A DNA stretch of 64,000 bases from a virus (IMGVR_UViG_3300042922_001018); one strand, 5' to 3'. Positions 37,348 to 62,465 are shown, counted from the stretch's first letter. Program-made: numbers and translations. The notes: generated by a model from the letters alone, not told the origin.

Positions 37348-37902
37348 TCAGGGAAGGTCGTCAGCGGGAGAGAAGAACTCCGGAGACGTGCGCGCCCGCT
37401 CATGCGCAGCGCGAACCTCGGGGTCAGCGAGAGCCAGCTCTTCCAGCGGCATCGCCACGCGCGGCTGAGAGGCCAGGCTGCTCGTGCGCATGAGATTCAG
37501 CCGCTCCCCGGAAGACTGAATCATCCGGCGCATGGCGTCCGAGAACTCTGGCGAGATGGAGTGGTAATGCCCCAGCATCGAGGTCAGCGCCGCACGCGAC
37601 TCGGGAGACATGTCCTCGTTCTCGGCTGCCTTCGCCTTCAACTCCTCGATAGTCAGCGGCTCTTCCGCGGGCAGCAGCGCCCGCAGCGTGTCAACGTCGA
37701 TAGAAACTTCACGGGTCTCGAACCCCTGTCCATCGTCGTACACCTCTTCTCGGAGGATACGACGCGCTTCCTCAACGGCGTCATCATGCGCTGACGATGA
37801 TGCGTCCAGAACGACTTCCGGAGACGACCCCGACTTCTCAGCGAACTTGCCGTCAGATGAACGCGGCGTCTCGAACGGGTCGAAGTAGCGAGGCCCAGGC
37901 AT
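37348..37902 (-). CDS. PR..DG.F..PE-tagged protein 1
   Basis: N-term ETPRSSDGKFAEKSGSSPEVVL. Confidence 0.8.
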   Translation of the reverse strand: MPGPRYFDPFETPRSSDGKFAEKSGSSPEVVLDASSSAHDDAVEEARRILREEVYDDGQGFETREVSIDVDTLRALLPAEEPLTIEELKAKAAENEDMSPESRAALTSMLGHYHSISPEFSDAMRRMIQSSGERLNLMRTSSLASQPRVAMPLEELALADPEVRAAHERARTSPEFFSPADDLP

Positions 37903-38180
37903 CAGTCGTCCCAGCGGTCATCGAAGCCGTGGGCGTCCGTTGTCCGCAGAGCGTCCGGGTCGGCATTCCCCACGATACCAGCGTAGTACGCGGCTTCGGC
38001 TTCAGTGTCATGGTTCGAGCAGTGGTAGTCCACGTCGCACTCGCACTCGCGGCCGGGAAGGAGAAAGCCGTTCTGCGGACCGGGAATGTCGGCGTCCAGT
38101 GCAACCTCGGGCGACGCGCCGGTCTTCTCGGCGAACTTGCCATCGGTTGCTCGCACGACTTCGTTTTCGTTGAAGCTCAT
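37902..38180 (-). CDS. PR..DG.F..PE-tagged protein 2 (Cys/His-rich body)
   Basis: MSFNENEVVRATDGKFAEKTGASPEVAL; GCCTACA-N7-ATG. Confidence 0.8.
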   Translation of the reverse strand: MSFNENEVVRATDGKFAEKTGASPEVALDADIPGPQNGFLLPGRECECDVDYHCSNHDTEAEAAYYAGIVGNADPDALRTTDAHGFDDRWDD

Positions 38181-38196
38181 GAACGGATGTAGGCGG

Positions 38197-39270
38197 TCAA
38201 GCGACCGCGCCATTCCATACGCGCTGGGCGAAAGCCATCTCGTCCCCGTCGCAGTCAGCCTGGTACGGGCCGCGCCACGTAGGGACGATGACCTTCGCCA
38301 TGCAGTCGGCCAGCAGTTCCAGCCCGGCATTCCCCGTGGTGAACAGCGCAGCCAGCGTTGGGGAGTCGATGAGCGCCCAGTAGTTCTTGAACTGAATCTG
38401 ATGAGCGTACTCGTGAGCCATCGGCCCCATCCAGTAGCCCTTCGAGTTGCCTGCGACACGATTCGCTACGATGACGCGACCATCCGGGTGAGCACACGCG
38501 ATAGCCGCTGCCATCTCACATACGATGTCCGCCCGCTCTAGATGCACCCATCCGCCGCCCACTGCGTCTAACGCAGAACGAGCGCCTGCCAGAACGGGGT
38601 CTGTGGCAGGCGCTGCGTTTGTATTCGCGGAAGGGTCAGGTGTCGGTGGAGGCTCCTCGTTCGGGTCTAGGCCTTCACGCTGCTCCCGTTCCAGCTCTTG
38701 CTGTTCTTGTTCAGCGCGAAGACGTTCCTGCTCCGCGTCGTATTCCTGGACTTCGGTCCGCAGAACGTTCATCGCGTCTCGTACTGTAGCCGTGGAGTTC
38801 GCCACGACGGCTGGATTCTCGCGTTCAGCCGCTACCCGGTCCTGCTCAGCAGAGACCGTTCGCTCGAACCCGGAGACATCCACCTTCGGCCGAGCCTCAT
38901 CGAGGAGAGCTGCGGCTTCGCCCAACGTGGTGAGGAAGCCTTCCCGGCTAGCGAGAAGCTCCTCCTGCGTCGCGATAGTCGCGTCTTTCTCCGCCACCGC
39001 CGACTCTAGCTCAGCGATACGCGCCTCAGCGTCCCCCGTCTGTTGACGGGCTTCCGCCGAAGTCGATTCCAGCTCAGCCACGCGCGCACTCGCCGAAGCG
39101 TACTGCGCGCCGAAGAAGATTGCAGCGATGATTGCGATGACTGCCACAGCGAGCATGGCAGCGAACATTGTCACCTTGACCCGAGAGAGTCGCTTCTCCT
39201 GGCGACGACGCTTCGCCCCGTCATGGTTGACGAGGATTTGCGCCGAGCTGTCGTCGAATAGTTCGCTCAT
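38197..39270 (-). CDS. TM + coiled-coil + HExxH metallopeptidase-like protein
   Basis: MAHEYAHQIQ...ELLADC; paralog of 12570..13148. Confidence 0.78.
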   Translation of the reverse strand: MSELFDDSSAQILVNHDGAKRRRQEKRLSRVKVTMFAAMLAVAVIAIIAAIFFGAQYASASARVAELESTSAEARQQTGDAEARIAELESAVAEKDATIATQEELLASREGFLTTLGEAAALLDEARPKVDVSGFERTVSAEQDRVAAERENPAVVANSTATVRDAMNVLRTEVQEYDAEQERLRAEQEQQELEREQREGLDPNEEPPPTPDPSANTNAAPATDPVLAGARSALDAVGGGWVHLERADIVCEMAAAIACAHPDGRVIVANRVAGNSKGYWMGPMAHEYAHQIQFKNYWALIDSPTLAALFTTGNAGLELLADCMAKVIVPTWRGPYQADCDGDEMAFAQRVWNGAVA

Positions 39271-39698
39271 ACTCCAGCCAGGCCGTCATCTCGGTCGTCG
39301 GAGCCGGGGCGGCGAGGCTTCAGTAGCCCCTTCTGGTGAGACTTCTCAGCCTCAGCGTCAGCGAGGCGACGCTCGTCGTCCACCGGCTGTGGGGTGCCGA
39401 ACCCGGTGATGAGCGCCTCATCCTTCGAGCCGAAGGGAAGCGCCTTGAAGCGGAACCGTTCGAACTCGTTGAGGACGCGCGAGACATCCTGCGCGGAGCC
39501 GTGAACCTCGATGATGGCGATGCGCGTCTGACTGTCCTTCCAGCCGTACGCGCCATGCGCCGAGTAGTTCACAGACGACCCGTCGAGAACGCTCCAGACG
39601 CGCCACAGGCGACGAAGGTTCGCGGCAACCCGAATGAACCTGGGGGTGGACAGACTCGTGTCTGCCTCGGGGCGCTCCAGAACAGCAGCCTCAGACAT
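39267..39698 (-). CDS. hypothetical protein
   Basis: MSEAAVLERPE...; GAGG RBS. Confidence 0.65.
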   Translation of the reverse strand: MSEAAVLERPEADTSLSTPRFIRVAANLRRLWRVWSVLDGSSVNYSAHGAYGWKDSQTRIAIIEVHGSAQDVSRVLNEFERFRFKALPFGSKDEALITGFGTPQPVDDERRLADAEAEKSHQKGLLKPRRPGSDDRDDGLAGV

Positions 39699-42662: not shown

Positions 42663-43406
42663 TCAGCGGCGACGGCCGTGCGACTCGGAGTCGCGCTGGG
42701 CAATACGCGCGTCCCGCTCAGCCATGAAGCTGTCGAACTCGTCAGTCTGACGGAAGTCGCGCAGGTCTTCACGGAGCTGCTCCAGCTCGGCCAGGATACG
42801 GCTGTCGTACGGCTCGAAGCCTGACTGGTCGAAGCCTGCATCCGTGCAGAACGCGTATCGTGCGCGTACTGTTTCTACGGTGCCCTGGGCACCACCGATT
42901 GTGACGGGCGACTGACGAACCTTCGCCGCCTCGATGTCGCTTCCCGTGAGGTCAGCGTAGTACCACATCTGGAGCGCGCGAGCAACCTCGCGCGCCTCAT
43001 GACGGGGGATTTCCGGCTCGTAGGAAGCCGCCCACTGCTGTTCGGCACTCTGAGCGCCACTGGCGCGGGCGCTATCGACCTTGGTAATCCAGGCAGCAGG
43101 GTTCGCCTCCTGCTGGACCTCCCAGTCCGGGTTCATGTCGTAGAGCGCCTGTCCTGCCGCGTCCGCGCCGCTTTCGATGTAGCGGGTGCGTGCGATGGCG
43201 TAGGAGACCCGCATGGCGTCCAGCGCCGACGAGGGAACCGGGACACTCTTCCAGAACCGGATGACCTGCTCCGCGTTGGTGTAGCTGGCAGGCGGGTACT
43301 CGAAGCTTGCGTCGCCGAACTCGTTCAAGCCGATTTCTGGAGCAGAGCCTTCCTTCTCCGAGAACTGGCCGGTGGCGGTACGGGGTTGCATGTCACTCAT
43401 GGTCAT
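42663..43406 (-). CDS. PR..DG.F..PE-tagged protein 3
   Basis: QPRTATGQFSEKEGSAPEIGL; GCCTACA-N7-ATG. Confidence 0.8.
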   Translation of the reverse strand: MTMSDMQPRTATGQFSEKEGSAPEIGLNEFGDASFEYPPASYTNAEQVIRFWKSVPVPSSALDAMRVSYAIARTRYIESGADAAGQALYDMNPDWEVQQEANPAAWITKVDSARASGAQSAEQQWAASYEPEIPRHEAREVARALQMWYYADLTGSDIEAAKVRQSPVTIGGAQGTVETVRARYAFCTDAGFDQSGFEPYDSRILAELEQLREDLRDFRQTDEFDSFMAERDARIAQRDSESHGRRR

Positions 43407-43428
43407 AGTTCAGTGTAGGCAGGAGCGC

Positions 43429-46400
43429 TCAACGGAAGCGAGGCGGCGTCGAAGCGCTCGAACCCGGCTGCGGCGCCACGGACGGTGCCGCAGCCTTACC
43501 GTCCAGGATGAGCCGTCGTGTCGGTCCTGCGGTCGGCGTGGCCGGTCCTGCGTTGCCTCCAGGAATGACGCGACGCGTCTGCGGCGTGCCAACGCCACTC
43601 AGCTTCGTGTTCGGGTCAAAGAGAATCTGACGCGGTGCGACCTTCGCGAACGGAGTCGCCGAGTTCGCGGGGGCCGCAGGAAGCGGCGGGACCGGACGGC
43701 CAGCGACCGGAGCACCCGTTACCGGGGTACGGGGCTTCGGAGGACGCGAGGACGGCGCTGGGGCCGAACCGCCGCCACCGTCGCGACGGTCGCGACGCGT
43801 CTGGTTGTTCGCCTTCTGCTGCTCCGCAGCCTGCACAGCCTGCTCCGCCTGGTAGTTGCGGTATGCCGCCATACGGTCACGTCCCGTGACGTTCGACGCT
43901 GCGCGCTTCGTAACGCCCCACGCCGCGCCAGAGGCCTTCGCCGTGGCGTAGGTTGCTCCGACTGCGGTCGCACCGATGACCCACGAGGAGCCTGCGGTCA
44001 TGACGCCGCCACCGACGACAGCCGCGCCGACGGCCACCTTCTTGGCGTCCGACTTCAGACGGTCCTGACGCGCGATGCGGAAGCCGACCTCGTCGAACGT
44101 ACCGTTCTCGTCGGTGTACTGCGCCCGCAGGTCGTCGCCACGGATGTGCTGAATCGGGTGCGCCATCGTGTTCGCGGTCGCCTTGACACCGTTCCACAGC
44201 TCGGAGCGACGCTCGGCCACGTTCTGCTTCGTGCTGAGCCATGCGTTGCGCATACCGTCCGCGCCCGCGGCACGCAGGTTGCGAGGGCCGTTGGCGGTGC
44301 CACCAGCCGCGAGGCCACCGGCCACCCGAGCTTCGGACTTCTGCTGAGAGGCGTACACGCGAGCAGCCATGCGCTCCTGACGCGCTGCGGCGTGTGCCTG
44401 CTGGCGCTGGTCGCGACGAGCAGAACCGAGGAACCCGCCAGCCGCAGCGCCACCGGCAGCCGCAGCGGCCGTACCCAGACCCTTGCCTGCACCAGCGGCA
44501 CTCGCTGCACCAGCCGCAGCCGTACCAACGCCACCAGCGGCAGCGCCCGCGGCACCGAGACCACGTCCAGCCGCACCCTTGCCTCCGGTAGCCGGAGCGA
44601 GCATGCCGCGGCCCATCGAAGCGCGGCGCTCGGCCATCGTCGTGCCGAAGCGACCACCCGAGACCTTGCTGAGGGCGGAAGAGCCAGCGCCCTGGATAGC
44701 CTGACGGCCCGAACGTTCGATAGCGCTCCGAGCCATACGGCCACCGATGAAGCCGCCGACAGCGCCACCCGCCGCTCCAGAGGCGAGACCGTAAGCGATG
44801 CCGCCCTTCATGGACATCGGCGAAGGCATCTTCAGCACCTTCTTGAAAATCATGTTCAGCGAGATGACCGCTAGCACAGGAGCCGCAGCCGCCCATCCCA
44901 GGGCCATGACGGTACCAGCGCCGAAGGAGCCGTTACCGAACTGCACCAGGATGAACGTGGTGAGAACCACCACGGAAAGCAGGACAAGCGACAGCGCTGC
45001 GAACAGCATCGACCCGATGAACTGCTTAGCCGCCGCCCCGAGCTGCTCCAGACCGTTCGCACGGAAGAGCGCCAGAATCATGATGGGCAGGATGGTAATG
45101 GTGCCGAGGACCACGAAGAGCTTCGCGATGACAACGGCAAGCGCCATGCCGAAGAAAATGCACATCATGATGAACGCGCTTACTGCGTAAATCAGCAGCG
45201 GGAACATGTTGCCAGCCGCGTTAGCGCCGTTCAGCGATGCGAGGTAATCCTGGATGTTCGCCTGCGTCGAAGCGTTCGAGATGTTCTCGGTCTTCTTCTC
45301 GATGTCGCTCATGGTGTAGCCGACCGAGAGACCACCCTCGAACTCGTTGTCCGTAGGCTTCTTGTTCCACCACTTCTGGCACTCGTCGGCAGCAACCCCC
45401 GAGAGCTGGTCCCAGCCCGTACGCCACTGCCACGTGCCAGCGCCACGGTTCGACGGCTCACAACCGGCCCAGCCGACCATCGCGCGCTGAATCTGCTCAG
45501 CCGAGGAGGCGGTCCAGACGAGCTGTCCCGTGTCACGAGCGCTCGCCGGGATGCCCGACGCGGCCGTGAAGTCGGCAGCGTTACGGGCGGGAGTCTGAGT
45601 CCAGCCATCCAGGAGACGGCAGTAGGAGTATTCAGCGTACTGGCTGGTTCCGAGCTGAGCGCTCTTCCAGACGGGCAGACCCGTCGTACGCCACATCGAG
45701 TCCATCGTCTGCGTCAGAGCGATACGAGGGGTCGCCAGAGCCGTCGGAGACGCACTCTCGCGGAAGCGCTTGTCGTACAGGTTGACGGACTCCGCGCAGA
45801 GGTTGTTGTTCGCAGTTCCCGGCGCACGGGAGCGGTCCGCGTCAATCTGGCCGCTGGTCTGAGTCTGAACGGTAGCGAGAACTGCACCGACAGGGACGCT
45901 TGCGGCGGTCGAGAGGGAGTCGTTCGCGATGGTGACAATCCAGCCCGGCGAACCGACGCCAGGCTTGTACTGACCGCCCGCAGTGGTCGTGGAGTTCTGC
46001 GCTCCGACCACCATAACGACGAACACGGCCATCGTCGCGACCAGCCCGGCGATACGCCGGAAGAGCATAGCGCTGGCGCCTGGCCCGGCCTTACGCCAGG
46101 ATGCGAACATCCAGATGCCCACCACCACAATCAAGATGAGAGGGATGAGAGCTACGCCGGAAGATGGATTCAGCATCGACTGGCCGAGGGTGGCGCCGAT
46201 TTGGTCCATCTGTGCACCCAGCATGTTGATGGGTTCGAAGTTGATAGCGAGGTCAGCGACCCACTGCGAGACGGTCCAGAAGCCGTTGCCGACGGCCATG
46301 ATGTTGCCCTGGAGCATCGTGCGCGAAGCGGCGTTCATCAGGTCGCCGATGGCCCACATGTCGTACTTGTTCTGGAAGCTCGCCGTAGCGTCACGCCAGC

Positions 46401-46869
46401 GATTCAGCAGAAGGTTCTGCGAGATAGCCGCACGCTCTGCCTGGGCCTCAGGGGACATGTACGGGCCACACGAGCCATCACAGGCTCCGATGGGCGCCCG
46501 GCTGCCATCCGCTGAAGTGATACCGCTGGGCAGGGCGGTAGACGATGCCTGTTGCTGCGTCGGCGCTCCATCGACGAAAGCAACAGCACCCTGCCCAGCG
46601 GATTCCGGGGTCGCGCCGATGACGGCAGGCGCGACAGAGTTGGCGATGGAGTCAGAAGGCTCCACGGATGCGACAGCCACACCGGTAACGGCGACCGTCG
46701 CGAGCATCAGACCAGCGAGAGCTGCGATGCCGGTCTTTGCGAAGCGTCCACGCCACGTTGCGCGCTTCGATGAATCTTTGGCCTTGCGGGGCGTGCCCGT
46801 CAGGCGTGCGCGGGAAGCCTCAGCAGCCTCATGCATCGGAAGGAAGATGCCACCAGTCACTTTAGCCAT
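43429..46869 (-). CDS. large polytopic membrane protein, VirB6/TrbL/TcpH-like architecture
   Basis: Multiple TM blocks, Cys-containing extracellular domain, long Ala/Gly-rich and Pro-rich tail; family is inference. Confidence 0.55.
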   Translation of the reverse strand: MAKVTGGIFLPMHEAAEASRARLTGTPRKAKDSSKRATWRGRFAKTGIAALAGLMLATVAVTGVAVASVEPSDSIANSVAPAVIGATPESAGQGAVAFVDGAPTQQQASSTALPSGITSADGSRAPIGACDGSCGPYMSPEAQAERAAISQNLLLNRWRDATASFQNKYDMWAIGDLMNAASRTMLQGNIMAVGNGFWTVSQWVADLAINFEPINMLGAQMDQIGATLGQSMLNPSSGVALIPLILIVVVGIWMFASWRKAGPGASAMLFRRIAGLVATMAVFVVMVVGAQNSTTTAGGQYKPGVGSPGWIVTIANDSLSTAASVPVGAVLATVQTQTSGQIDADRSRAPGTANNNLCAESVNLYDKRFRESASPTALATPRIALTQTMDSMWRTTGLPVWKSAQLGTSQYAEYSYCRLLDGWTQTPARNAADFTAASGIPASARDTGQLVWTASSAEQIQRAMVGWAGCEPSNRGAGTWQWRTGWDQLSGVAADECQKWWNKKPTDNEFEGGLSVGYTMSDIEKKTENISNASTQANIQDYLASLNGANAAGNMFPLLIYAVSAFIMMCIFFGMALAVVIAKLFVVLGTITILPIMILALFRANGLEQLGAAAKQFIGSMLFAALSLVLLSVVVLTTFILVQFGNGSFGAGTVMALGWAAAAPVLAVISLNMIFKKVLKMPSPMSMKGGIAYGLASGAAGGAVGGFIGGRMARSAIERSGRQAIQGAGSSALSKVSGGRFGTTMAERRASMGRGMLAPATGGKGAAGRGLGAAGAAAGGVGTAAAGAASAAGAGKGLGTAAAAAGGAAAGGFLGSARRDQRQQAHAAARQERMAARVYASQQKSEARVAGGLAAGGTANGPRNLRAAGADGMRNAWLSTKQNVAERRSELWNGVKATANTMAHPIQHIRGDDLRAQYTDENGTFDEVGFRIARQDRLKSDAKKVAVGAAVVGGGVMTAGSSWVIGATAVGATYATAKASGAAWGVTKRAASNVTGRDRMAAYRNYQAEQAVQAAEQQKANNQTRRDRRDGGGGSAPAPSSRPPKPRTPVTGAPVAGRPVPPLPAAPANSATPFAKVAPRQILFDPNTKLSGVGTPQTRRVIPGGNAGPATPTAGPTRRLILDGKAAAPSVAPQPGSSASTPPRFR

Positions 46870-47342
46870 CCTTCGGTATCAATCTGCTGCTTGCGACGCC
46901 GTGGCGTCGGGGTGGTCAGGACCGCGGTAGGTGCGACCTGTTCGTATTCGGGACGAAGCTCGATGTCCAGCGGACCGACCATAGCCAGATACGAAGGAGA
47001 GATGGTTTCGTTACATACGAATACTACACCATTCTGCGCCTTACGCTTGTCCCACATGGCCTCGTAACGACGAAGGCCGAGACCGTCGCGCGTACGACCC
47101 TCCACGAAGAAGAAGGTCAGGGCCACGACAATGAGGGGGATGGTCAGAAGAACTACTACGCCCGGCATCATGCCGAACGAGAAGGCGACCGGAGCAATAA
47201 GGCCCACAGGGATAAGAGAAGCCAGGAGAGCCATCACGGTCACGATGAACGACCGACGCGAGATTTCGAACGTCGCCAGGACCATTGTCCGGCCGGTGTT
47301 CTTCTTCGCGCCAGTCAGGCTGGTCATCGAGAACATGTACAT
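46857..47342 (-). CDS. two-TM protein, PrgI/TcpE (VirB3)-like architecture
   Basis: TM hairpin then RTRDGL basic region; family is inference. Confidence 0.5.
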   Translation of the reverse strand: MYMFSMTSLTGAKKNTGRTMVLATFEISRRSFIVTVMALLASLIPVGLIAPVAFSFGMMPGVVVLLTIPLIVVALTFFFVEGRTRDGLGLRRYEAMWDKRKAQNGVVFVCNETISPSYLAMVGPLDIELRPEYEQVAPTAVLTTPTPRRRKQQIDTEGWLK

Positions 47343-47434
47343 GGTTGTTACCTATTATCCCATCTGGGCGAACGAGAAGTGGCCGAGCACCCGAAGGTGA
47401 CGGCCACTTCCCTGCCGTTGGAAGGCCGTCGGGG

Positions 47435-47728
47435 TTACCGTACGACCGAGTTGACGATGGTGATGAGGAAGCCGACGATGAACTGAAGAACACCGATGAT
47501 GGCCGGAATGACGAGCTGTGGACCAGCCAGTGCGCCCGCGAGGACGACGGCAATCCACGGGAAGCCCTGCATGCCAGCCCCGCCACCCTTGCGTCGCTGC
47601 CACAGCCATACGACCACGGAGATGACGAGGATGACCACACCCAGCACCGTCATGAACGTCAGAACGTTCGACGGTACGACTGCGATGAGACGGTTCCAGC
47701 CGTCCACCCAGTTGAGGCCACTACCCAT
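47435..47728 (-). CDS. small two-TM protein, TcpD/VirB2-like architecture
   Basis: 97 aa, two hydrophobic helices, basic Gly loop; GAAAGG RBS. Confidence 0.5.
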   Translation of the reverse strand: MGSGLNWVDGWNRLIAVVPSNVLTFMTVLGVVILVISVVVWLWQRRKGGGAGMQGFPWIAVVLAGALAGPQLVIPAIIGVLQFIVGFLITIVNSVVR

Positions 47729-47866
47729 TGTTGTCTACCTTTCGCTAAGAACCGCTTGATGCGGGCATAGGGGTTGTAGGCGGCGAACGGGTCGCGGGTG
47801 TCACTGTAAGAGACTTGGAGCGCCTCCTATGCACCCATCAGAATAGCAAGTCCACGCATCAAGAGT

Positions 47867-49732: not shown

Positions 49733-49898
49733 GGCGCCGCTCGTCGATGTGCACAGCAAGCAGCCAAGCGCCGGGCGCTCCGGCTCCCAGGATGGCGAGC
49801 ACCAGGCCATCCGTCTGTGCATCGCCCAGCACAAGGCGCGTGACACCCGCGATGGTTGCCACAGCAAGGAGGATGAGCGCCGTACGAAGCTTGTTCAT
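49722..49898 (-). CDS. small two-TM protein
   Basis: MNKLRTALILL... Confidence 0.55.
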   Translation of the reverse strand: MNKLRTALILLAVATIAGVTRLVLGDAQTDGLVLAILGAGAPGAWLLAVHIDERRHAE

Positions 49899-50275: not shown

Positions 50276-51009
50276 AGCATCACGTCGATGTACTCGGCCG
50301 CGACATTCGCGCAGAGGTAGTCCACATCGTCGGCTGAAAGCTTCATCTCGAAGAACCGCTGCACCAGCACCGGAGGCATCCCGGTCCATGCGCATTTCGC
50401 GACCACGTCCAGATGCCCGGTCCACTTCGCAGGAACTTCCGCCATGTAGCGAATCGGGAACGCTTCATCGAGCAGGACCGTCAGACCACCAAAACGCAGA
50501 GCGGCGCCCATCCGATGAACACCCTTCGCGCCATGAATCTGTACCGCAGTCATGAACTCTTTCGGTTCCAGACCGGTGCGGACCACGGCGGCGATGGCCG
50601 AATGAATCCCCAGCTCAGGTTGCGGGTTCTTCTGCTTGCCGAAGATGCTCTCACGAACCTCTGGGTCGCTGACGAAAGCCAACAGCTCTTCGGCTTCCGG
50701 AGCGGTCTTGAACCACTGGAAGGCCTGTTCAGTGTACAACGCCACAGGAGCCTGGCTCTTGTTGTACTTGCCGTAGATGTCCGGCGGGAAGATGTCCCAC
50801 CGCCCACGCCACATCTCTGCCAGCGCAGAACCCTCCAGGTTGAAGCGGCGTGCAAGAACATCCAAGCCCTGTTCGAGCATGACCGCCCCGCGAGCGAGGT
50901 CATCATCCGAGTGCAGCTTCGCATTGTCACTGCCCCACGGCTTAGCCGCGGCAGGCCAGTTCGGGAGCATCTGCTCGTAACCTTCAGGGGCGAACACGTT
51001 GTCAGTCAC
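50266..51009 (-). CDS. GVP.EY-repeat family protein
   Basis: GMPP.., NVAAEY C-terminus. Confidence 0.7.
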   Translation of the reverse strand: MTDNVFAPEGYEQMLPNWPAAAKPWGSDNAKLHSDDDLARGAVMLEQGLDVLARRFNLEGSALAEMWRGRWDIFPPDIYGKYNKSQAPVALYTEQAFQWFKTAPEAEELLAFVSDPEVRESIFGKQKNPQPELGIHSAIAAVVRTGLEPKEFMTAVQIHGAKGVHRMGAALRFGGLTVLLDEAFPIRYMAEVPAKWTGHLDVVAKCAWTGMPPVLVQRFFEMKLSADDVDYLCANVAAEYIDVMLQP

Positions 51010-51820
51010 GGAACCGAATACCTAGTCTGTCGAAGTCAGGGGTGTCGGCGTTCAACGCCTCACGCGCATAGTCTAGCGGCATACCACTCTCCAACGCAAG
51101 GATGATTTCCTCAGCCGTTCCCCACCAGTCATGCAAGAGCGCCACATCGGCCAGCGGGACACTCCGCTCCCGAGCGAGATGCAGAAGGTCACATCGGACG
51201 AAAGCCGGAACCGTCAGCAAGCCCTGCGTGATGAGTGCCTCTCGGAGCGGCCCTGTGGGCCTGTAGACGAAGAACTCGGCCAGCTCCGGTCCGGAGAAGC
51301 CCTCGTCCAGAAGCCACCGCACAGCGCCATCCTGGGTCGATGCATACAGCCCGGCCGCGAACAGCATGAGCGCGGACTCATCGGAAGCGTCGAGGAACGC
51401 ATTCCGAAACGACTGCGGCATAAGGGCCGCATACGCTGGATGGAAAGCCAGGTCGCGAATGAGGCCCGCCATCTCCTCGGCAGTCAGACGCAGCGCAGCG
51501 GGGACGGCTAGAACGATACTCAGCGCGTTCGTCCGGTCCCCGAAGTCTGAAGGGTCCGCTCCAGAGCTTCGGAGAAAATCCTGCACCTCGTTCTGGTCCT
51601 TGAACGTCTCCGCCGCTTGCAGCCAGTTCATTGCATCGTACGGCGACGGAGATACCCGAGCGCCTACAAGCCTCTCAGCAAGGTCCGGAGTGACGCCCAT
51701 TCGGTTCAACGCCTCAGACATCGGTACCCGCGAGCTACCGTCGGATGAGGCCATCGCGTGTCGCGCGAGAGCGGTCGGTGACTGCGCCTCCACAACGACA
51801 TTCGGCCACTCCACGGTCAC
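51002..51820 (-). CDS. GVP.EY-repeat family protein
   Basis: SGMPLDY C-terminus. Confidence 0.7.
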   Translation of the reverse strand: MTVEWPNVVVEAQSPTALARHAMASSDGSSRVPMSEALNRMGVTPDLAERLVGARVSPSPYDAMNWLQAAETFKDQNEVQDFLRSSGADPSDFGDRTNALSIVLAVPAALRLTAEEMAGLIRDLAFHPAYAALMPQSFRNAFLDASDESALMLFAAGLYASTQDGAVRWLLDEGFSGPELAEFFVYRPTGPLREALITQGLLTVPAFVRCDLLHLARERSVPLADVALLHDWWGTAEEIILALESGMPLDYAREALNADTPDFDRLGIRFRD

Positions 51821-53992: not shown

Positions 53993-54466
53993 CTACGCGC
54001 AGGCGTCGTCCATCGACACATTGATTCCCGCATCCCCTAGCACCGTCACGTCAGGGTGGGCAGCGGCATACGCCGTATGGATGACCATTTGCGATTCGAC
54101 ATCCTCGGCGTAGACGGAGAGGTCAAGGTAGTCGTACCTGCCCTGTTCAACCGAACCACACACGGCTTCGATGATGGCTTCCGGCATGTCTTCATAGAAC
54201 TCCGCTGCGACGGGGACACTGACGAAGACACCCAGTTCCAGCGCGAAACCGTTCTTGTGCGAAGTGACCGTAGTCTCGCTCTCCGGTACGGCTAGCGAGA
54301 TGGCTTCCTTCATGTCTGCAATACTTCCCGACCCCGAGTCATCCCCGACAATCGGTCGTATCTCATCGCGCAAGGCGGCACAGCCTGTCAGCCCTCCCAG
54401 GAGGAACAACGAGAGACCGACAGCCACTATGGCAGCCTGTATCCTGGTCTTCTCAGCCATGCCCAA
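53993..54466 (-). CDS. lipoprotein, family B
   Basis: Lipobox LTGC; IIEAVC, terminal Cys. Confidence 0.78.
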   Translation of the reverse strand: MGMAEKTRIQAAIVAVGLSLFLLGGLTGCAALRDEIRPIVGDDSGSGSIADMKEAISLAVPESETTVTSHKNGFALELGVFVSVPVAAEFYEDMPEAIIEAVCGSVEQGRYDYLDLSVYAEDVESQMVIHTAYAAAHPDVTVLGDAGINVSMDDACA

Positions 54467-54493
54467 TATCCCTCTCGTGCACCTGACTTATAG

Positions 54494-54994
54494 TCAGGAT
54501 GACCCTAACTTGTTCTCCAACGACCCAGGGGTCGGTCGGGGAACGGGTGCAGGCGATACCTCGCACACCTCGGGGAGAGAGAACACGGCCGTAGTACGGT
54601 GACCAATCACAAGGTCATCACCGTACATCTCTTTGCCCACCGAGAGAACATCGTAATAGTCGTGGCTGTCCTTCTGCGAGAACGAGATGTCTACCCCGTC
54701 GAAAGGGCCACCCTCGTCGCAGACGACGTTGACTGCGCGTACGATGTCGTCGGGCTGCACCTCTTCAAGGTCATCCACCGCGATGTCGAACCCGAGACTG
54801 TACGTGAAGCCGCTCAGGCTGCCTCCGCCGAGCACCTCAGAGTCCGGGAACGCCTCCTCGACAGCGGCGATGACCTCCTCCGCCTGAGCATCAGCGCCAT
54901 CACGATTCAGTTCGCTCGACAGTGCGTTGCAACCGGTGAGTACACTCACCAGAACGAGACCGCCGCCAAGAGCCGCGGCATGCTTCAGACGCAT
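54494..54994 (-). CDS. lipoprotein, family B
   Basis: Lipobox LTGC; VNVVC. Confidence 0.78.
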   Translation of the reverse strand: MRLKHAAALGGGLVLVSVLTGCNALSSELNRDGADAQAEEVIAAVEEAFPDSEVLGGGSLSGFTYSLGFDIAVDDLEEVQPDDIVRAVNVVCDEGGPFDGVDISFSQKDSHDYYDVLSVGKEMYGDDLVIGHRTTAVFSLPEVCEVSPAPVPRPTPGSLENKLGSS

Positions 54995-55431
54995 GCCTTG
55001 CCCAAGTCCACTTCGCCTTCCGGCGTCAGCGCACCGGTTGCGCTGTACAGCTCGGTGAGCATCGGCTGGACATCCGTGGGGGTCTCTGCTCCCGCGCTAC
55101 CCAGCGAGAGACGCAGGAAGTCGAAGTTCCCGCTGCTCGATTGGCAGACGGCGGTGACAAGACGCTGGATGTCCTCGGTTGCCGGGACAGCCTCCGTCGG
55201 TGCCTTGACCGTGACGCTCAGGGCGCGAATAGCGCCAGAACCAGAAGCTTCGACGATGGTCTCCGACTCGGGCGGCACGACCTCGGCGACAGCCGTCTTC
55301 ACAACTTCAGTGGCCGGAGTTCCGTCAGAAAGAGTCGGCTGGTTGTCCTCGGCTGAAGGAGAGCTGCACCCTACGAGCGCCATGACGAGGACAGCAAGGG
55401 AAGCTCCGAGAGCGGCACGGTTCGTTTTCAC
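54985..55431 (-). CDS. lipoprotein, family B
   Basis: Lipobox LVGC; VTAVC, terminal Cys. Confidence 0.78.
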   Translation of the reverse strand: MKTNRAALGASLAVLVMALVGCSSPSAEDNQPTLSDGTPATEVVKTAVAEVVPPESETIVEASGSGAIRALSVTVKAPTEAVPATEDIQRLVTAVCQSSSGNFDFLRLSLGSAGAETPTDVQPMLTELYSATGALTPEGEVDLGKACV

Positions 55432-55440
55432 TCCTGAAGT

Positions 55441-56184
55441 CTACAGTATCGTCAGGTATTCCAGTGGCACCCCGTCACGCCAACCGGCGCGTGCTGCGAG
55501 CGCTGTTATCTGAGCCTCCATGCACTGAGCGAGGTATGCGGAGGGAACGCCGTCCCGGTAGCAGCGTTCAACGTCCATCGCGTCTACCCACAGAGCATCG
55601 TCAGACAACGAGACGAAGACATCGCGAAGGTAATCGGGCGGAACGCCTACAGACTCGGTGTAAGCCGCACGCTCACACAGCGCTGCCACTGTGACCCAAC
55701 CCATCCACTTCCCCGTGGAGAGAGCGCGAAGATACTCAGGCGTCGCACCACGCTCTAAGGCAGCAACCAGCGCTTCGTAGGCAGGCAACTGCGCCTCGAT
55801 GAAGAACGAGCCGAGCACTTCACCTATAGGAAGCGTCTGTTTGCGAAAGTCGTTGAGCATGTCCATGTAGATGCTGCGCTCCAACGGCGAGCCGAGTGCC
55901 CCCGTCAGACCGCATGCTCGGACGAACGGAGCAAAACGTACGCAATCCTGTGGCGACGCCTGCATCCATTTCAGGTTCTTGAAGAGGAAGGCAACAGACC
56001 GGGAAACCTCATCACTGTCGATGATTCCTCCGCGCGCCACCACGGCCCTAGCCGGAGCGCAGTCGGCGACGAACTGCCTCAGCTCATCGACGTTGCGGAG
56101 TTCCCACTTGTAGTCGTGGAGCCAGGTGGCATCGTACACACCCCATGCAGTGAGCTGGATGTGCGCACGATACCACCCGAACAT
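55441..56184 (-). CDS. GVP.EY-repeat family protein
   Basis: GATPEY, GVPPDY, GVPSAY, GVPLEY. Confidence 0.72.
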   Translation of the reverse strand: MFGWYRAHIQLTAWGVYDATWLHDYKWELRNVDELRQFVADCAPARAVVARGGIIDSDEVSRSVAFLFKNLKWMQASPQDCVRFAPFVRACGLTGALGSPLERSIYMDMLNDFRKQTLPIGEVLGSFFIEAQLPAYEALVAALERGATPEYLRALSTGKWMGWVTVAALCERAAYTESVGVPPDYLRDVFVSLSDDALWVDAMDVERCYRDGVPSAYLAQCMEAQITALAARAGWRDGVPLEYLTIL

Positions 56185-57410: not shown

Positions 57411-57434
57411 GATAGCACAAAATCGTGGCGCTCG

Positions 57435-58208
57435 CTAGCCTCCAGCGACCACCAGAGCCGCATACTCAGGCGCTAGGCCATCCGTCCAGCAGGAGAGGAC
57501 GATTTCGTGCGCCCGGAAACCTGCGAAGTAGTCAGAGGATGCGCTCACGAGAGACGTGACTAGCTCAACTGAGTAGGCAACGGGGACGCCTTCAATCGTG
57601 AGCCGCATGATGACATCGTGGTACGTCGCCAACGCCTTCAACTGTTCACCGCGGTACCCCTGACGGATAGCTAGCGCAGTGTACTCGAACCGTCCAGCCG
57701 TACGGTTCACCCACTCATGGAATGGGTCAGCCTTCTTGCCTTCACCGCCCCAGCGCCAGGCATCCTCCCACTCCAGTTCGACCACGAAACTCCGGGTCTG
57801 GTCCTTCTGGAGTTCTGAGAAAGCTTGGAGATGCTCCAGCGGCTCATCTTTCAGGAGAAGGATGCCAGCGAGGGCTGGCACACTCCCTGAGAGTGCGATG
57901 CCCTCACGACCTCGTTCCCAGCCGAACAGAAGCTCGCCCGGCGTCTTACCTTCACGAGCAGCGAGAGGAGCAAGGAACCTCTCAACGTTCGGGTTGTACC
58001 CGTAAGAGGGCTTCTCCCCGAGTTCTGCACGCATCTGCTCAAACAGCTCCGGCCGCGACTTATACGACTCCGCGAGAGCGCGTCCAATCAGCGGGGTCGC
58101 CTGCTCCATGAAGTCGCGAGTGTACCCGCCTCCGGTGAAGACGTTCGGAAACCACTCCGGCAGGGCATAGTCAGCGACCATCTTCGGAGTGCAGAAGGGC
58201 GTTGTCAC
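57435..58208 (-). CDS. GVP.EY-repeat family protein
   Basis: GVPVAY, GLAPEY. Confidence 0.7.
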   Translation of the reverse strand: MTTPFCTPKMVADYALPEWFPNVFTGGGYTRDFMEQATPLIGRALAESYKSRPELFEQMRAELGEKPSYGYNPNVERFLAPLAAREGKTPGELLFGWERGREGIALSGSVPALAGILLLKDEPLEHLQAFSELQKDQTRSFVVELEWEDAWRWGGEGKKADPFHEWVNRTAGRFEYTALAIRQGYRGEQLKALATYHDVIMRLTIEGVPVAYSVELVTSLVSASSDYFAGFRAHEIVLSCWTDGLAPEYAALVVAGG

Positions 58209-58230
58209 ACCTTCAGTCTACCGCAGAAGT

Positions 58231-58461
58231 TCAGGACGAGTAGCCGGAGAACATGTCCGATTCGTAGTAGTGGTCCTGGGAGCGCGAATAGTCCCGCTCT
58301 TCCCAGTCACGCTCCTGGGAGCGCCACTCCTGGCCCTGGCGTTCCTGCTCGATGAGGAGGTCTTCTTCGACCTGAGCCGGGTCTAGGATGAAGACTTCCG
58401 GAGCCGAACCCGTCTGCGCGGTGAACCGCCCGAGGTCGTCACGGTTCGCCTCGTTGCTCAT
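58231..58461 (-). CDS. PR..DG.F..PE-tagged protein 4 (divergent tag)
   Basis: NRDDLGRFTAQTGSAPEVFIL. Confidence 0.72.
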   Translation of the reverse strand: MSNEANRDDLGRFTAQTGSAPEVFILDPAQVEEDLLIEQERQGQEWRSQERDWEERDYSRSQDHYYESDMFSGYSS

Positions 58462-58769
58462 GCCGCGAACAGCTCGAACTCTTCGAACTCGACTGCGCCG
58501 CCACGGACATCGAACTCCACAATCTTCCTGGGGAGGACGACACGGAGCGGGGCGTTCGGAAGCGGCGGGCCGTGGACAATGAGCTTCTCACCCTCATCCA
58601 CCCAGTCAGGGATGCGGACGACTCGGCTGCCGTAGCTTGTCTTGCGTCCGAGCGGGTCCAGCAGCGCGATTACCAGCTCGTCGCGCGTTTCAGGGGTAAC
58701 GATTGTCATGTTCACAGTGTACCTTTCGCCAGCAACTCTGCTGGTCACTTGTCCTTCGAATCGAGCCAA
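58458..58769 (-). CDS. small hypothetical protein (true start probably downstream of 58769)
   Basis: Fills gap between tagged genes; ATGA coupling. Confidence 0.55.
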   Translation of the reverse strand: MARFEGQVTSRVAGERYTVNMTIVTPETRDELVIALLDPLGRKTSYGSRVVRIPDWVDEGEKLIVHGPPLPNAPLRVVLPRKIVEFDVRGGAVEFEEFELFAA

Positions 58770-59764
58770 GACAGGAGAGCCTCGGCCTTTCGCTGCTTCT
58801 GCGTGAAGACAGTTGCCGCACGGGTCGCTTCGAGTCCATCACGCAACGCACTCGAACGGGTCGCGTATCCATTCTTCGCGAGGGACTCGATTTCCTCCTG
58901 GTACGGTCCGCTCCACTCGTCGCCCGAGAGGGAGCGGGCTACGGCGATGGCCTCTGCGTCCGTTGGCGCTACCGTCGTACGCTTCGGTGAGTCGGCGATT
59001 GCACCTGCGTCCAGCCCTTCAGCGTCCTTCAGGGCGGTCCAGCGGTCGCTTGCAACAACGGCCTCATCGAGCTGTTCGCGAAGGTCCGCGTATGCGTAAG
59101 GGCTGCCGTACGTTCCGGGGTCGTGCTCGTTGACGAACTTGATGAACTGCATACGGTCTTCTGACGTGTTCGCGACCAGGGAAGGGGAGAACTCTTCCGG
59201 CTTGTACGTCGTCGAGAACTCCAGCATGACGCTGTTCCAGCTCTCCCCGTTGTCGATAATCTCGGCACCGAACCGGTCCCGGAAGAACTTCTCGACGATG
59301 GGGTAGGCGTCATCGAGTTCGTCGGGCGTGAAGTCATCAGCCCAGAGCATGTCCTCGTAGTAGTTTCCGGTGAGGAGGATGTCACCGTCGTCTGTGAGAC
59401 GCGCATACGGGTTGGTCATCTCGCCACCGGAAGGCTCCCACTCGACATCGCTCAGGTCCATGTCGTAGCCGTCTTCGCTGGGAAGGTCGAAACGCTTCTC
59501 CTTGAACTGTGTCGGTAGGCCCCAATCGCGCTCCCCACCCTCGCGCATGTTCTCGATGACTTCGTCCAGAGTCTCGCGCGGTTCGGTGGCCGGGATACCG
59601 AGTTGGGCGCGAATGCCTTCCTCAGTGAAGGTGTCCCCCTGGTAACGGTACAGCGTGTTCTCGTTCGTCGGAGGGGAAGTCAGCTCGAACTCGGGAGCGG
59701 CGCCAAGCTTCTCAGCGAAGGTTCCGTCAGTCGCGCGCGGGTGGTCGGTCTCAGAGAAAGTCAT
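58745..59764 (-). CDS. PR..DG.F..PE-tagged protein 5 (acidic)
   Basis: DHPRATDGTFAEKLGAAPEFEL; GCCTACA-N7-ATG. Confidence 0.82.
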   Translation of the reverse strand: MTFSETDHPRATDGTFAEKLGAAPEFELTSPPTNENTLYRYQGDTFTEEGIRAQLGIPATEPRETLDEVIENMREGGERDWGLPTQFKEKRFDLPSEDGYDMDLSDVEWEPSGGEMTNPYARLTDDGDILLTGNYYEDMLWADDFTPDELDDAYPIVEKFFRDRFGAEIIDNGESWNSVMLEFSTTYKPEEFSPSLVANTSEDRMQFIKFVNEHDPGTYGSPYAYADLREQLDEAVVASDRWTALKDAEGLDAGAIADSPKRTTVAPTDAEAIAVARSLSGDEWSGPYQEEIESLAKNGYATRSSALRDGLEATRAATVFTQKQRKAEALLSWLDSKDK

Positions 59765-59927
59765 GCCTGGATGTAGGCGGTGCCGCGAACTTCTAGAAGC
59801 GACAGATGCCCAGCGCGCGACTCAGTGACACAGAGTCCACAGCCGCCCATCTGTCAGGCAAGTCCACACTACGCACACTGCTCATAGGCTCGATGTAGAG
59901 CGTTGTGTCCTGCGCCCAGCCCGCCGG

Positions 59928-60482
59928 TCAGTTGAGTCGGTAGAGGTAGAACGTCTCATCGTCCGTCTCGATTTCAGTCTCTTCACCATCGTACTGCGCG
60001 AGGTACGGGCCACGGCCGTCTTCCTCGATGGCCCGTTCGACGAAACCTTCCGAGCCGCCATCGGCAAGACCATCGACCATCCGCTTGATGTTCTCCTGGT
60101 GCTTCTCGCCGCCGCCCGAGTCGTTCGCGAGCGCCAAGAACACGCTTACGTCGAGACCCGTCTCCTTAGCGAGAAATCCGCTACCCATGCTCCACATGTT
60201 CTCGTCGATGTAGAGCTTCGCGGCGTCCTGCGCCTGCTCTTCCGTACCGACCCCGTACTCAACTTCACGGCCGTCCGCGTCGATGGCTGTGAACGTGGGG
60301 AGGTGTTCGTAGTGCGTGTCGCCAGTCGAAGTGACGCCGCTGGCGTCGATACCCAGGTGTTCTGCCAATGCGACGCGAGCCTCAGAGGTCTCATCGTCCA
60401 GTTCCAGCTCGGGCGCAGCGCCCAGCTTCTCGGCGAACTTACCGTCAGTGGAACGTGGGTGCTCGGTCTCAGAGAAAGTCAT
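59928..60482 (-). CDS. PR..DG.F..PE-tagged protein 6 (acidic)
   Basis: EHPRSTDGKFAEKLGAAPELEL; paralog of next gene. Confidence 0.82.
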   Translation of the reverse strand: MTFSETEHPRSTDGKFAEKLGAAPELELDDETSEARVALAEHLGIDASGVTSTGDTHYEHLPTFTAIDADGREVEYGVGTEEQAQDAAKLYIDENMWSMGSGFLAKETGLDVSVFLALANDSGGGEKHQENIKRMVDGLADGGSEGFVERAIEEDGRGPYLAQYDGEETEIETDDETFYLYRLN

Positions 60483-60504
60483 GCCCGGATGTAGGCGGTC
60501 GCGG

Positions 60505-61044
60505 TCAGTTCAGCCGGTAGAGATAAAGAGTCTGGCCGTCTGCTGCCGCGATTTCGTTCTCCTCGAAATCGTATCCGGCGAGAAGCTGACCGCGACCGTT
60601 CTCCGCGATGAATCGCTTCCCCGCTCCCACTGAGCCACCATCAGCGTGCTCATCGAGCAGACGCGTGAGTTCCTCCAGGTTTTCAGTCCCCTCATCCGCC
60701 GTCTCGTCCAGCTCGGCGAACACCGCCTCGTCCAGACCTGTCTCTTTGGCGAGGTGGGAGTTGGTGAGCGCCCAGATGTTCTTCTGGAACGATTCTTCGG
60801 CCGCAGTCGTGGCCTGTCCATCCGTACCGATAGCGTATTCCTCCTCACCGACCCGGAACGTCGGAAGGTTGTCGTAGTGGACGTAGTCGTCTCCTACCAC
60901 ATCCGCTACGTCCACTTCGAGATGGTCGGCAAGCACAGAGCGGATAGCTTCAGTGTCGGCGATGCTTACCTCCGGTGCTGCGCCGAGCTTCTCAGCGAAC
61001 TTGCCATCGGATGCTCGCGGGTGCTCAGTATTGTCGAAGGTCAT
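60505..61044 (-). CDS. PR..DG.F..PE-tagged protein 7 (acidic)
   Basis: EHPRASDGKFAEKLGAAPEVSI; both paralogs end YLYRLN. Confidence 0.82.
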   Translation of the reverse strand: MTFDNTEHPRASDGKFAEKLGAAPEVSIADTEAIRSVLADHLEVDVADVVGDDYVHYDNLPTFRVGEEEYAIGTDGQATTAAEESFQKNIWALTNSHLAKETGLDEAVFAELDETADEGTENLEELTRLLDEHADGGSVGAGKRFIAENGRGQLLAGYDFEENEIAAADGQTLYLYRLN

Positions 61045-61107
61045 GAACCGCTGTAGGCGGTTGTAGGAACCCTACAACAGAAACCGGCCATCCTTGTACA
61101 CGTCAAA

Positions 61108-61157
61108 CAAGCCCGTGCAGAATAGTGCCAGCAGCGGCACTATTCTGCACGGGCTTG
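61108..61157. terminator. 22-bp perfect inverted repeat
   Basis: CAAGCCCGTGCAGAATAGTGCC / GGCACTATTCTGCACGGGCTTG. Confidence 0.72.
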
Positions 61158-61177
61158 TAGGAACCCTACAAGGAATC

Positions 61178-61687
61178 TCAGATGAGCTTGTCGGGAACGT
61201 ACAGGAAGACGGGGTCGCTCTCGAAAACGTCAGACGCGTGGAACCCGCCGTACGAGTTCGTGAACATGCAGTCGCCGAACTCTTCAGAGTCCAGGTTCAC
61301 GAAGCCGGGAGCGAACGTGAACGTGGACTCCGGCTCGGACTCGTGCTCGCGGATGTGGACGACCAGACCGATGGTCTGAGGGCCGGACTCGTTGACCATA
61401 GCGACAAGGTCGGGACGCTCAGAGGCCGGGAAGGTCTCGACGACCAGCTCCGGGTTGCGAGCGAGGATGAACTCCTCCGAGAAGACGTTGCCCTTGTCCT
61501 CGGGGTCGTCCACGTAGGCGGACGCCCAGACGGCCGAGTGAATCTCACCGTCGGTGTCGATGTGTCCGGGGATGAGAGTCGCGACGTGCATCATCGGCTC
61601 GTCATACGACTGCGGGTCCGTCAGGTAATCCTCGGGCTGCACGATGAACTTGACGACGGAGCCAGGGTTCGTGGGGAGCTTGTCCAT
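61178..61687 (-). CDS. acidic hypothetical protein
   Basis: 169 aa; leaderless promoter. Confidence 0.7.
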   Translation of the reverse strand: MDKLPTNPGSVVKFIVQPEDYLTDPQSYDEPMMHVATLIPGHIDTDGEIHSAVWASAYVDDPEDKGNVFSEEFILARNPELVVETFPASERPDLVAMVNESGPQTIGLVVHIREHESEPESTFTFAPGFVNLDSEEFGDCMFTNSYGGFHASDVFESDPVFLYVPDKLI

Positions 61688-61733
61688 ACCTCTACGGTAG
61701 CACCCCGGCTCCGTCGTGTCAAGCGCGTGGTAT

Positions 61734-62465
61734 TCAGCCGAACAGTTGCTCGTCCGTGGTGTAAAGGCGTACGTTGGTCGTGTATGTGCGCTCAGGCGGC
61801 GCCCATCCGCCTTCCGTCTTTCGGTTCCAGGCTTCAGCGATGTTCAGAGCGCCGTGGTAGGCAAGCGAAGCATCGCGTGTCCACTGGCCGTCTGGTGTGT
61901 GCAGAGCACCGTTAGGCGCTTCGATGAACACCTCGACACTCTGTTGTGGAGTTCCTACATTCGCTGTACGCACAGAGTATTCGAAAGGAGGCATCTCGCC
62001 ATTCGATACGGCTTCCTTCACCCGGTTCGTCACGCGCTGTCCCACAACATCAGCTCGCTCCCAGCCGTCGTACAAGGCTCCTACCTGAGTTACGCGGCCG
62101 TCCGCGCGGTCAAGTCGAACGGGCGGCGGCGGAACCGGACGGTCGTTCGAGAACCGGCCCAGAGCGATGCACACGGCCTGATGCATTGGGTCGTTCGGGG
62201 AAAGCTGGGAGCCTTCCTCGTCCACGACGTAAACGGCTTCCGGGGCCGCGCGCACCGCGTATGCCCGGTCGTCGAAAGTGCCGACGAACGAGCCATCACT
62301 ACGCCACATCACCCGGCCGAACAGCTCGTCGATAGTGTCCTCAGGGGCGACGTTGGCCGCAGAAGGCGCGGGCGGGAGAAGCGAAATCTCCGGAGTGGAG
62401 CCATGCTTCTCGGCGAACCGTCCGTCAGTTGCGCGGGGCTGGTTGAAGGAATCCCAGGTACTCAT
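61734..62465 (-). CDS. PR..DG.F..PE-tagged protein 8
   Basis: MSTWDSFNQPRATDGRFAEKHGSTPEISL; GCCTACA-N7-ATG. Confidence 0.82.
   Translation of the reverse strand: MSTWDSFNQPRATDGRFAEKHGSTPEISLLPPAPSAANVAPEDTIDELFGRVMWRSDGSFVGTFDDRAYAVRAAPEAVYVVDEEGSQLSPNDPMHQAVCIALGRFSNDRPVPPPPVRLDRADGRVTQVGALYDGWERADVVGQRVTNRVKEAVSNGEMPPFEYSVRTANVGTPQQSVEVFIEAPNGALHTPDGQWTRDASLAYHGALNIAEAWNRKTEGGWAPPERTYTTNVRLYTTDEQLFG

Follow-up and report, generated by a model that had tools for sequence, protein, structure and literature searches.

The polyvalent proteins of phages and conjugative elements, together with solo LPD modules, are the closest known kind of protein to those considered here (Iyer, Burroughs, Anand, de Souza, Aravind 2017, PMC5512222). 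They bring diverse effector modules together on mobile DNA, with two to fifteen effector domains per polypeptide, and are thought to enter the new host along with this DNA; one polyvalent protein has been detected in phi24B virions by mass spectrometry (bioRxiv 10.64898/2026.04.10.717836). In functional terms, the closest parallel is provided by the capsid-targeting sequences found on the internal proteins of T4 and on DarB of P1 (Mullaney and Black 1996; PMC9024508), N-terminal peptides of no more than 30 residues that suffice as capsid addresses in these phages (PMC9024508). The anti-defence and establishment genes of the leading region of conjugative plasmids (Samuel et al. 2024, PMC11541004) form a third point of comparison. 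The present analysis concerns a stretch of 64,000 nucleotides from the virus entry IMGVR_UViG_3300042922_001018 (hereafter the window), which is part of the 450,372-bp contig Ga0456364_0000048 of JGI 3300042934. Eight minus-strand genes between positions 37348 and 62465 of the window encode soluble, acidic and mostly novel proteins, each of which begins with a disordered leader of about 28 residues, referred to as the tag.

The tag reads M-T-F-x-E-x-x-HPR-x-x-DG-K-F-A-E-K-x-G-x-x-P-E-V-x-L. A preliminary description, made from the sequence of the window alone, had proposed that eight genes share such an N-terminal peptide, and scans of all six frames by regular expression and by a hidden Markov model (HMM) bear this out: there are exactly eight copies in the window, every one of them at the N-terminus of an open reading frame (ORF), and none in positions 1-37000. 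Residues R10, G14, F16, G21, P24 and E25 are identical in all eight copies, and the HMM domain scores of these copies range from 63 to 79 bits, with a model that was trained on the same eight. The copies at 58231 and 37902 are indeed the looser ones, as had been stated. It was likewise correct that the bodies, once the tag is removed, are unrelated except for 59928/60505, the sole related pair (44% identity, E 2e-33), and the proteins, which had been called mostly acidic, have bodies with an isoelectric point (pI) of 4.05-4.70 in eight of eight cases. The tag alone has a pI of 4.3-5.5, and the whole proteins one of 4.1-4.8. None of the eight tagged proteins has a match in Pfam or PHROGs, and the tag itself has no Pfam or PHROG model. 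Unlike polyvalent proteins, the window proteins are short (76-339 aa), with a single tag followed by a single body. Every module has a small gene to itself and a promoter of its own, multi-copy forms being found in other genomes only, and the eight bodies match no LPD or other Pfam family (the polyvalent set includes MPTase, ART, LPD1-39 and PBECR).

The gene at 37348..37902 (minus strand, as are all eight; the higher coordinate is in each case the corrected start) encodes 184 aa, of which residues 1-32 form the tag (MPGPRYFDPFETPR..DGKFAEK.G..PEVVL), and the pI of its body is 4.5. Its start overlaps the stop of the tagged gene upstream, and the two tagged genes are therefore translationally coupled. 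This upstream gene (37902..38180, 92 aa) carries the sequence MSFNENEVVR..DGKFAEK.G..PEVAL and starts at the ATG of MSFNENE at 38180, rather than at the upstream GTG at 38459. The gene at 42663..43406 (247 aa) has a QPR/TGQF variant of the tag; its orthologues P0017, P0024 and P0026 are 60-68% identical to it in the body and 82-93% in the tag. The loosest tag of the eight, NRDDLGRFTAQTGSAPEV, heads the 76-aa product of 58231..58461, a gene coupled to a 103-aa gene just upstream (58458-58769). The remaining four are P0006 (58745..59764, 339 aa), P0001 (59928..60482, 184 aa), its paralogue P0002 (60505..61044, 179 aa) and P0005 (61734..62465, 243 aa), the last of which begins with MSTWDSFNQPR..DGRFAEK.G..PEISL.

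The match between the tags is not due to chance, because tags are 54-93% identical, both among orthologues and among unrelated proteins, where the identity of bodies falls to about 20%, and because the same tag also stands at the N-terminus of proteins of other contigs and of plasmids from cultured bacteria. At the invariant R, G and P positions, four synonymous codons are all in use among 21 tag copies. Since synonymous sites vary, conservation acts on the peptide and not on DNA or RNA, and recent gene conversion is not its cause; a DNA- or RNA-level repeat was rejected as an explanation of the tag on the same ground. In the two proteins that were modelled with AlphaFold2 (AF2), the tag is predicted to be a disordered leader ahead of a folded body. 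For P0001 (predicted template modelling score 0.73), residues 1-29 have a predicted local distance difference test (pLDDT) value below 50 and no secondary structure, and the body (residues 30-184) is folded with pLDDT 81-96. For P0006, tag residues 1-32 are disordered (pLDDT below 40), and the body model is of moderate confidence. The preliminary description had named beforehand the case in which the tag would be an integral part of one shared fold, and this is ruled out by the AF2 models, which leave the tag disordered. Its view of a portable N-terminal module on unrelated bodies receives further support from an untagged homologue of the P0001 body in Alicyclobacillus phage KKP_3916 (31% identity, E 6e-16, alignment starting from residue 28). 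A homologue search with the P0001 body found two relatives only, and the P0001 model had no match in the PDB at E <=0.001 (Foldseek). Signal peptides of the Sec and Tat pathways have a basic n-region and a hydrophobic h-region of at least ten residues, or a twin-arginine motif. The tag sequences contain no hydrophobic run and no RR motif, and a Sec, Tat or lipoprotein signal was rejected, given that the tag is without a hydrophobic core.

A profile built from 41 tags was searched against 1.84 billion representative proteins, of which 586 match at E <=0.001 (54 at 1e-10). The best profile matches, pooled with proteins found earlier, split into two classes. The small class comprises 144 proteins with a median of 234 aa and one full-length tag each, which begins at residue 1 in 125 of the 144. 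The large class comprises 45 proteins of 481-4660 aa with two to nine internal copies at a median spacing of 254 aa; these are proteins of the polyvalent type (ART-PolyVal, ADPrib_exo_Tox, Zeta toxin, portal, LPD3, LPD13), and their internal copies match only profile positions 3 to 17-23, which is the first half of the tag. The second conserved half, present in just one of 157 internal copies, sets the tag apart from the junction peptide of polyvalent proteins. A single paralogous family was rejected as an explanation, as 143 bodies of the small class fall into 55 clusters without a BLAST link. A Pfam domain of any kind is found in only about 9 of 129 tagged relatives, namely GmrSD_N (two), SprT-like (one), LRV, FtsK_gamma and a few DUFs. 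A strict DNA pattern of the full tag yielded only three unrelated matches in IMG/VR and only core-type copies in GTDB genomes; one scaffold-like phage protein of IMG/VR with DAFGKFVEKFGDDPE matched the strict pattern by chance and is without the HPR core. With tblastn against phages, the 32-aa tag gave chance matches only (including an unrelated one in Gordonia GMA6), and neither a 31-aa internal motif nor a piece from the C-terminus of a portal had any match.

The leader is made of two parts. The first is a core, (F/W)-x-E-x-x-H-P-R-x-x-(D)-G-(K/R)-F, identical with the peptide ahead of every effector module in phage portal fusions and polyvalent proteins; the second is an extension, A-(E/D)-K-x-G-x-x-P-E-(V/I/L)-x-L, confined to a lineage of giant Micrococcales-type plasmid-like elements. 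A DNA pattern for the core, encoding E-x-x-HPR-x-x-x-GKF, matches at least 117 IMG/VR contigs, versus 17 for a control of reversed order and the same composition. The matches listed include at least 146 motifs in at least 126 ORFs, whose median length is 658 aa and which hold as many as six copies each. Of the motif-bearing ORFs, the first 67 include 21 portal fusions (Phage_portal_3, Phage_portal_2, Portal_Mu, P23-45); the other domains are ADPrib_exo_Tox, LPD3, NUDIX, DUF2213, Zeta toxin, ART-PolyVal, LPD13, InPase and PBECR1, a set that is known from polyvalent proteins (Iyer et al. 2017, PMC5512222). The likeness of the tag to that system lies in its core, which precedes modules in proteins with ART-PolyVal, LPD3, LPD13, PBECR1, InPase, Zeta toxin, NUDIX and portal fusions. 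Where it was mapped (ART-PolyVal, Zeta-toxin, Pyr_redox), the core lies about 40-130 aa before the next domain, in most cases with a Gly/Ser-rich linker after it. In the annotated portal protein of Xanthomonas phage PhiXhv-5, the portal domain spans residues 99-453, the core lies near residue 519, and a C-terminal extension follows. The core hardly changes between phages of Helicobacter and Xanthomonas, plasmids of actinobacteria and the metagenome-assembled genome (MAG) of a planctomycete. The text of Iyer et al. 2017 (PMC5512222) makes no mention of HPR, linker or leader, and literature searches found no description of the HPR-GKF peptide. We read the leader as descended from the junction peptide of polyvalent proteins, since its core is homologous to the peptide found in front of every module in those polyvalent proteins that are borne in the phage head. 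The analogy to T4 and other phages drawn in the preliminary description has a real basis in this respect, as the first half of the tag stands ahead of the cargo modules that phages fuse to their portals.

The window contains 54 transfer RNA (tRNA) genes, transfer-messenger RNA (tmRNA), RtcB, SNF2, UvrD, NrdF, GmrSD_C and a C5 methylase, and no capsid, portal, terminase or other structural phage gene. Its DNA has nothing similar among phages and plasmids beyond nrdF, and its genes have no match in the phage collection except for one untagged body homologue. Positions 43429-63998 are syntenic with contig JAAIGE0100521822.1 of the metagenome GCA_011800935.1, with a common order of nrdF, SLT-like gene, tagged genes, RtcB, SNF2, GmrSD_C and membrane operon; the paralogue pair 59928/60505 is missing from the syntenic contig, and tagged cassettes therefore come and go. 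A second lineage, with contigs of 68 and 395 kb, has at least 15 tagged ORFs in 20 kb, and related JGI and NCBI contigs (116 kb) carry 63 tags. The full 28-residue tag is also found on plasmids of about 150-600 kb of cultured Micrococcales: Curtobacterium pS16 (546 kb), D40 (608 kb), C. pusillum (567 kb), Arthrobacter sp. zg-Y1110 (401 kb), Paenarthrobacter pYJN5-1 (440 kb) and Glaciihabitans sp. INWT7 (149 kb). On the Glaciihabitans plasmid, NZ_CP043654.1, nine coding sequences annotated by PGAP begin with the variant M-T-F-x-E-x-x-HPR-x-x-GKF-x-DK-x-QS-APE-x-x-L; they form one co-oriented block that adjoins RepA and ParA, and among them lie genes for secretion-type ATPases, for an A24 peptidase and for a protein of the FtsK/SpoIIIE type.

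Whole-replicon gene searches covered five Micrococcales megaplasmids. The HK97-type capsid family PF05065 has no match on any of the five. ORFs of AAA_10 (VirB4-type) score above cut-off in four of the five, and the VirB4 family PF03135 is absent; TraG-D_C, of the type IV coupling protein (T4CP) type, occurs in two to three, and all five encode both long (1419-1787 aa) and short FtsK/SpoIIIE proteins. Because the relatives carry the tag together with conjugation-type genes and have no PF05065 match, we assign the element, putatively, to a family of giant plasmids of Micrococcales that possess a conjugation-type apparatus, rather than to the phages. As a separate observation, pYJN5-1 (NZ_CP053545.1 5000-50000) carries, near a TrbL-like gene, its own DnaE, SSB, a CHAP hydrolase and a 989-aa sigma-70 family protein.

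In six of the eight tagged genes, a GCCTACA box ends exactly 7 nt before the start codon, with no Shine-Dalgarno sequence; the remaining two are translationally coupled to the upstream gene. This CCTACA-N7-ATG arrangement is found at 37902..38180 (box at 38188..38194), 42663..43406 (43414-43420), 58745..59764 (59772-59778), 59928..60482 (60490-60496), 60505..61044 (61052-61058) and 61734..62465 (62473-62479), with all boxes on the minus strand. GCCTACA occurs 15 times in the window versus 4.7 expected, and the same N7 spacing is seen in 42 of 78 tagged genes of related contigs. Two further minus-strand boxes stand without fixed spacing to a gene start, one before the membrane operon (47775-47781) and one at the head of the tRNA array (37265-37271). 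Since the box also heads these two units, it is a promoter-like element and not a translation signal. The CCTACA-N7-ATG genes are, by their arrangement, probably transcribed as leaderless mRNAs; this suggests that the six boxed genes form one co-regulated set of leaderless transcripts, and that the box is read by an element-specific sigma factor. The tags of Glaciihabitans are without the CCTACA box, and tag and promoter are therefore separable. After the box at 47775, only a 7-codon mini-ORF precedes the membrane operon. The tRNA array itself (17966-36897, minus strand) packs the 54 tRNA genes and the tmRNA (tag peptide ANATRNDLALAA) into 19 kb, with GCCTACA at its head on the same strand.

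We hypothesize that the leader is a portable addressing or handling peptide for cargo that is handed over with the DNA of the element, in this case by conjugation; this is the reading that we favour, tentatively and without calling it probable. Tagged proteins would be produced in the donor and passed to the next cell alongside the DNA of the element, as a kind of invasion cargo. In the phage counterpart, the modules would travel in the head, tethered behind the portal; in this element, they would have been split into separate genes. A conjugation-type apparatus (VirB4-, T4CP-, TrbL- and FtsK-type proteins) would be a likelier route than a virion. The preliminary description had considered two destinations for the tagged proteins. 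Loading into a virion is unsupported for this element, with no capsid, portal or terminase gene in the window and no PF05065 match on the five megaplasmids. Loading onto a VirB6-like membrane module, its alternative, looks like the better of the two routes, albeit an inferred one, because the relatives have no capsid match and do have conjugation-type genes (VirB4-, T4CP-, FtsK- and TrbL-like). Type VII secretion, whose substrates are characterised by a WXG helical hairpin and a YxxxD/E signal at the C-terminus, may also be a route for tagged proteins, given the long FtsK/SpoIIIE proteins (1419-1787 aa) on related plasmids.

A candidate for a TrbL/VirB6-like channel component is the 1146-aa polytopic protein of the membrane operon (43429..47728, minus strand), which also encodes two-transmembrane proteins of 97 and 161 aa. 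The proteins of this operon have no Pfam match. The actinobacterial clusters nearest to the 1146-aa protein are partly TrbL (ESM Atlas feature search, score 0.91, a lead only), and homologues with 28-30% identity occur on four of the five Micrococcales megaplasmids. A secreted SLT-like transglycosylase (62485..63105, minus strand; weak Pfam match to SLT, E 0.0018, below the curated cut-off) is possibly a wall-opening enzyme of a transfer apparatus. The tagged genes resemble those of conjugative leading regions in being densely arranged, small, fast-evolving and mostly of unknown function, with individual promoters on a conjugative-type replicon, and leading-region genes, like the tagged genes, are presumably needed at entry (Samuel et al. 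2024, PMC11541004). However, the recipient expresses leading-region genes from the DNA that enters it, and their products have no common protein tag (PMC11541004), whereas the common peptide found here suggests handling at the protein level.

Several points weigh against a role of the leader in conjugative transfer. Transfer, packaging and cleavage of tagged proteins are putative, as is any receptor. Known signals for type IV secretion are C-terminal, positively charged or hydrophilic, and are recognised by the coupling protein. The element shared by the tagged proteins is instead N-terminal and acidic, and the pI of the whole proteins (4.1-4.8) likewise departs from the basic signals of known type IV secretion systems. 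MOB-suite classes related megaplasmids as non-mobilizable. Capsid genes are possible elsewhere on the 450-kb contig, the structural-gene scan having covered the 64-kb window. Moreover, the documented setting of the core is the phage head and not conjugation: a 20-residue core query finds named phages, and has no match in a plasmid collection that is three times larger. Finally, a core that hardly varies among portal families and phyla is more readily explained by a universal ligand or by an intrinsic property than by a lineage-specific receptor.

This last point leads to the possibility that the leader is a functional short linear motif, which would bind a universal ligand such as DNA, single-stranded DNA or a conserved host protein and gather effectors, for example at incoming DNA, with no role in transport. 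That the core is nearly the same in the phages, plasmids and planctomycete MAG named above argues for such a universal partner, and the peptide is disordered, with many aromatic and basic anchor residues. Nevertheless, it resembles none of the known motifs for binding DNA or host factors, is not covered by a Pfam or PHROG model and is acidic as a whole (pI 4.3-5.5), and we consider this explanation rather unlikely. A slightly better, though still low, chance is given to a processing or handling signal, in which the leader would be the recognition site of a protease or chaperone, that is, a cut site at polyvalent junctions and, in solo genes, a pro-peptide or a timing or degradation tag, cleaved for instance after (A/S/T)-P-E. 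The core does precede each mapped module of multi-module proteins, and MPTase has been predicted to cut polyvalent proteins into units (Iyer et al. 2017, PMC5512222). P-E formally fits the A-X-E rule of SPN3US gp245, which giant-phage prohead proteases follow (PMC10052503); no prohead protease of the giant-phage type was found here. A SprT-like peptidase domain is present in one tagged relative, and directly upstream of two tagged genes lies a gene (38197..39270, minus strand) for a membrane-anchored coiled-coil protein whose C-terminal domain is metallopeptidase-like, with the HExxH motif HEYAH. Its model resembles M78/ArdC-type, M48 and Mx1 peptidase clusters (ESM Atlas structure search, template modelling score 0.5-0.72), and co-folding of the HExxH domain (215-357) with the tag alignment gave a score of 0.02, which is evidence neither way on binding. 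Processing of the tag by this protein is speculative, and the positive-inside rule, applied to its sequence, predicts the peptidase to face outward. A mere cleavage site would, in addition, not explain why strong purifying selection has kept the peptide at the very start of hundreds of single-module proteins, and the same core occurs in four portal families whose maturation proteases differ.

If the element were a giant phage, the tag could be a capsid-targeting sequence that loads cargo into the head for injection. T4 and P1 do employ N-terminal capsid addresses, and like these the tag is a short portable N-terminal peptide on unrelated cargo, with a conserved Glu that might be a cleavage point; the core is linked to portals in phages, and the window is phage-like in its 54 tRNAs, tmRNA, RtcB and NrdF. 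Yet the tag has no sequence similarity to the T4 and P1 peptides, and capsid, scaffold and prohead protease genes, like any structural gene, were not found in the window. The T4 and P1 sequences are phage-specific, whereas the tag is common to several bacterial phyla. The related replicons, five in number, are circular plasmids (RepA and ParA are annotated on one) with conjugation-type ATPases and no PF05065 match, and the phage collection matches window genes in one untagged body homologue only. Taking this into account, capsid targeting appears improbable. Less probable still is that the tag has no shared function, being the remnant of one expanded family or the by-product of a 5' cassette of promoter and start region that aids leaderless translation. 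Promoter box and tag do travel together at fixed spacing; however, the peptide is kept while synonymous sites vary freely, the bodies belong to at least 55 unrelated clusters, the core is also internal in large proteins, far from start codons, and the Glaciihabitans tags are without the box. By this codon, internal-copy and body-cluster evidence, the explanation is largely refuted.

Two further groups of genes lie near the tagged genes on the minus strand. The untagged genes at 49355-49867, 51002-51820, 55441-56184 and 57435-58208 share repeats ending in G-(V/L/M/A)-(P/A/T)-x-(E/D/A)-Y, up to four of which occur in 55441-56184, about 30 residues apart; this family has no Pfam match. Three tandem small proteins (148-166 aa) encoded at 53993-55431 have a lipobox-like L(T/V)GC after a hydrophobic N-terminus, and are, from this feature, probably paralogous lipoproteins.

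The system occurs in cultured Glaciihabitans sp. INWT7 and in Curtobacterium sp. MCSS17_016 and MCBD17_040, and is therefore testable at the bench. It points to a conserved feature of polyvalent proteins that goes unmentioned in their 2017 description (PMC5512222). In its boldest form, to which we give only a small chance, our favoured reading of the leader as an address for transferred cargo would make the HPR-GKF peptide a universal cargo handle of mobile DNA, with one conserved recognition in phage heads and in actinobacterial conjugation that is sufficient for sending any protein; the giant Micrococcales plasmids would then have turned the polyvalent strategy into a regulon of separately tagged effectors. 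If the leader is a transfer address, it would define at once 586 representative clusters of candidate injected establishment proteins, most of them without a known domain, and these would offer ample material for the discovery of anti-defence functions. A short portable tag for protein delivery by phages or plasmids would be gained as well, and phage ejection and conjugation would be linked via one shared peptide.

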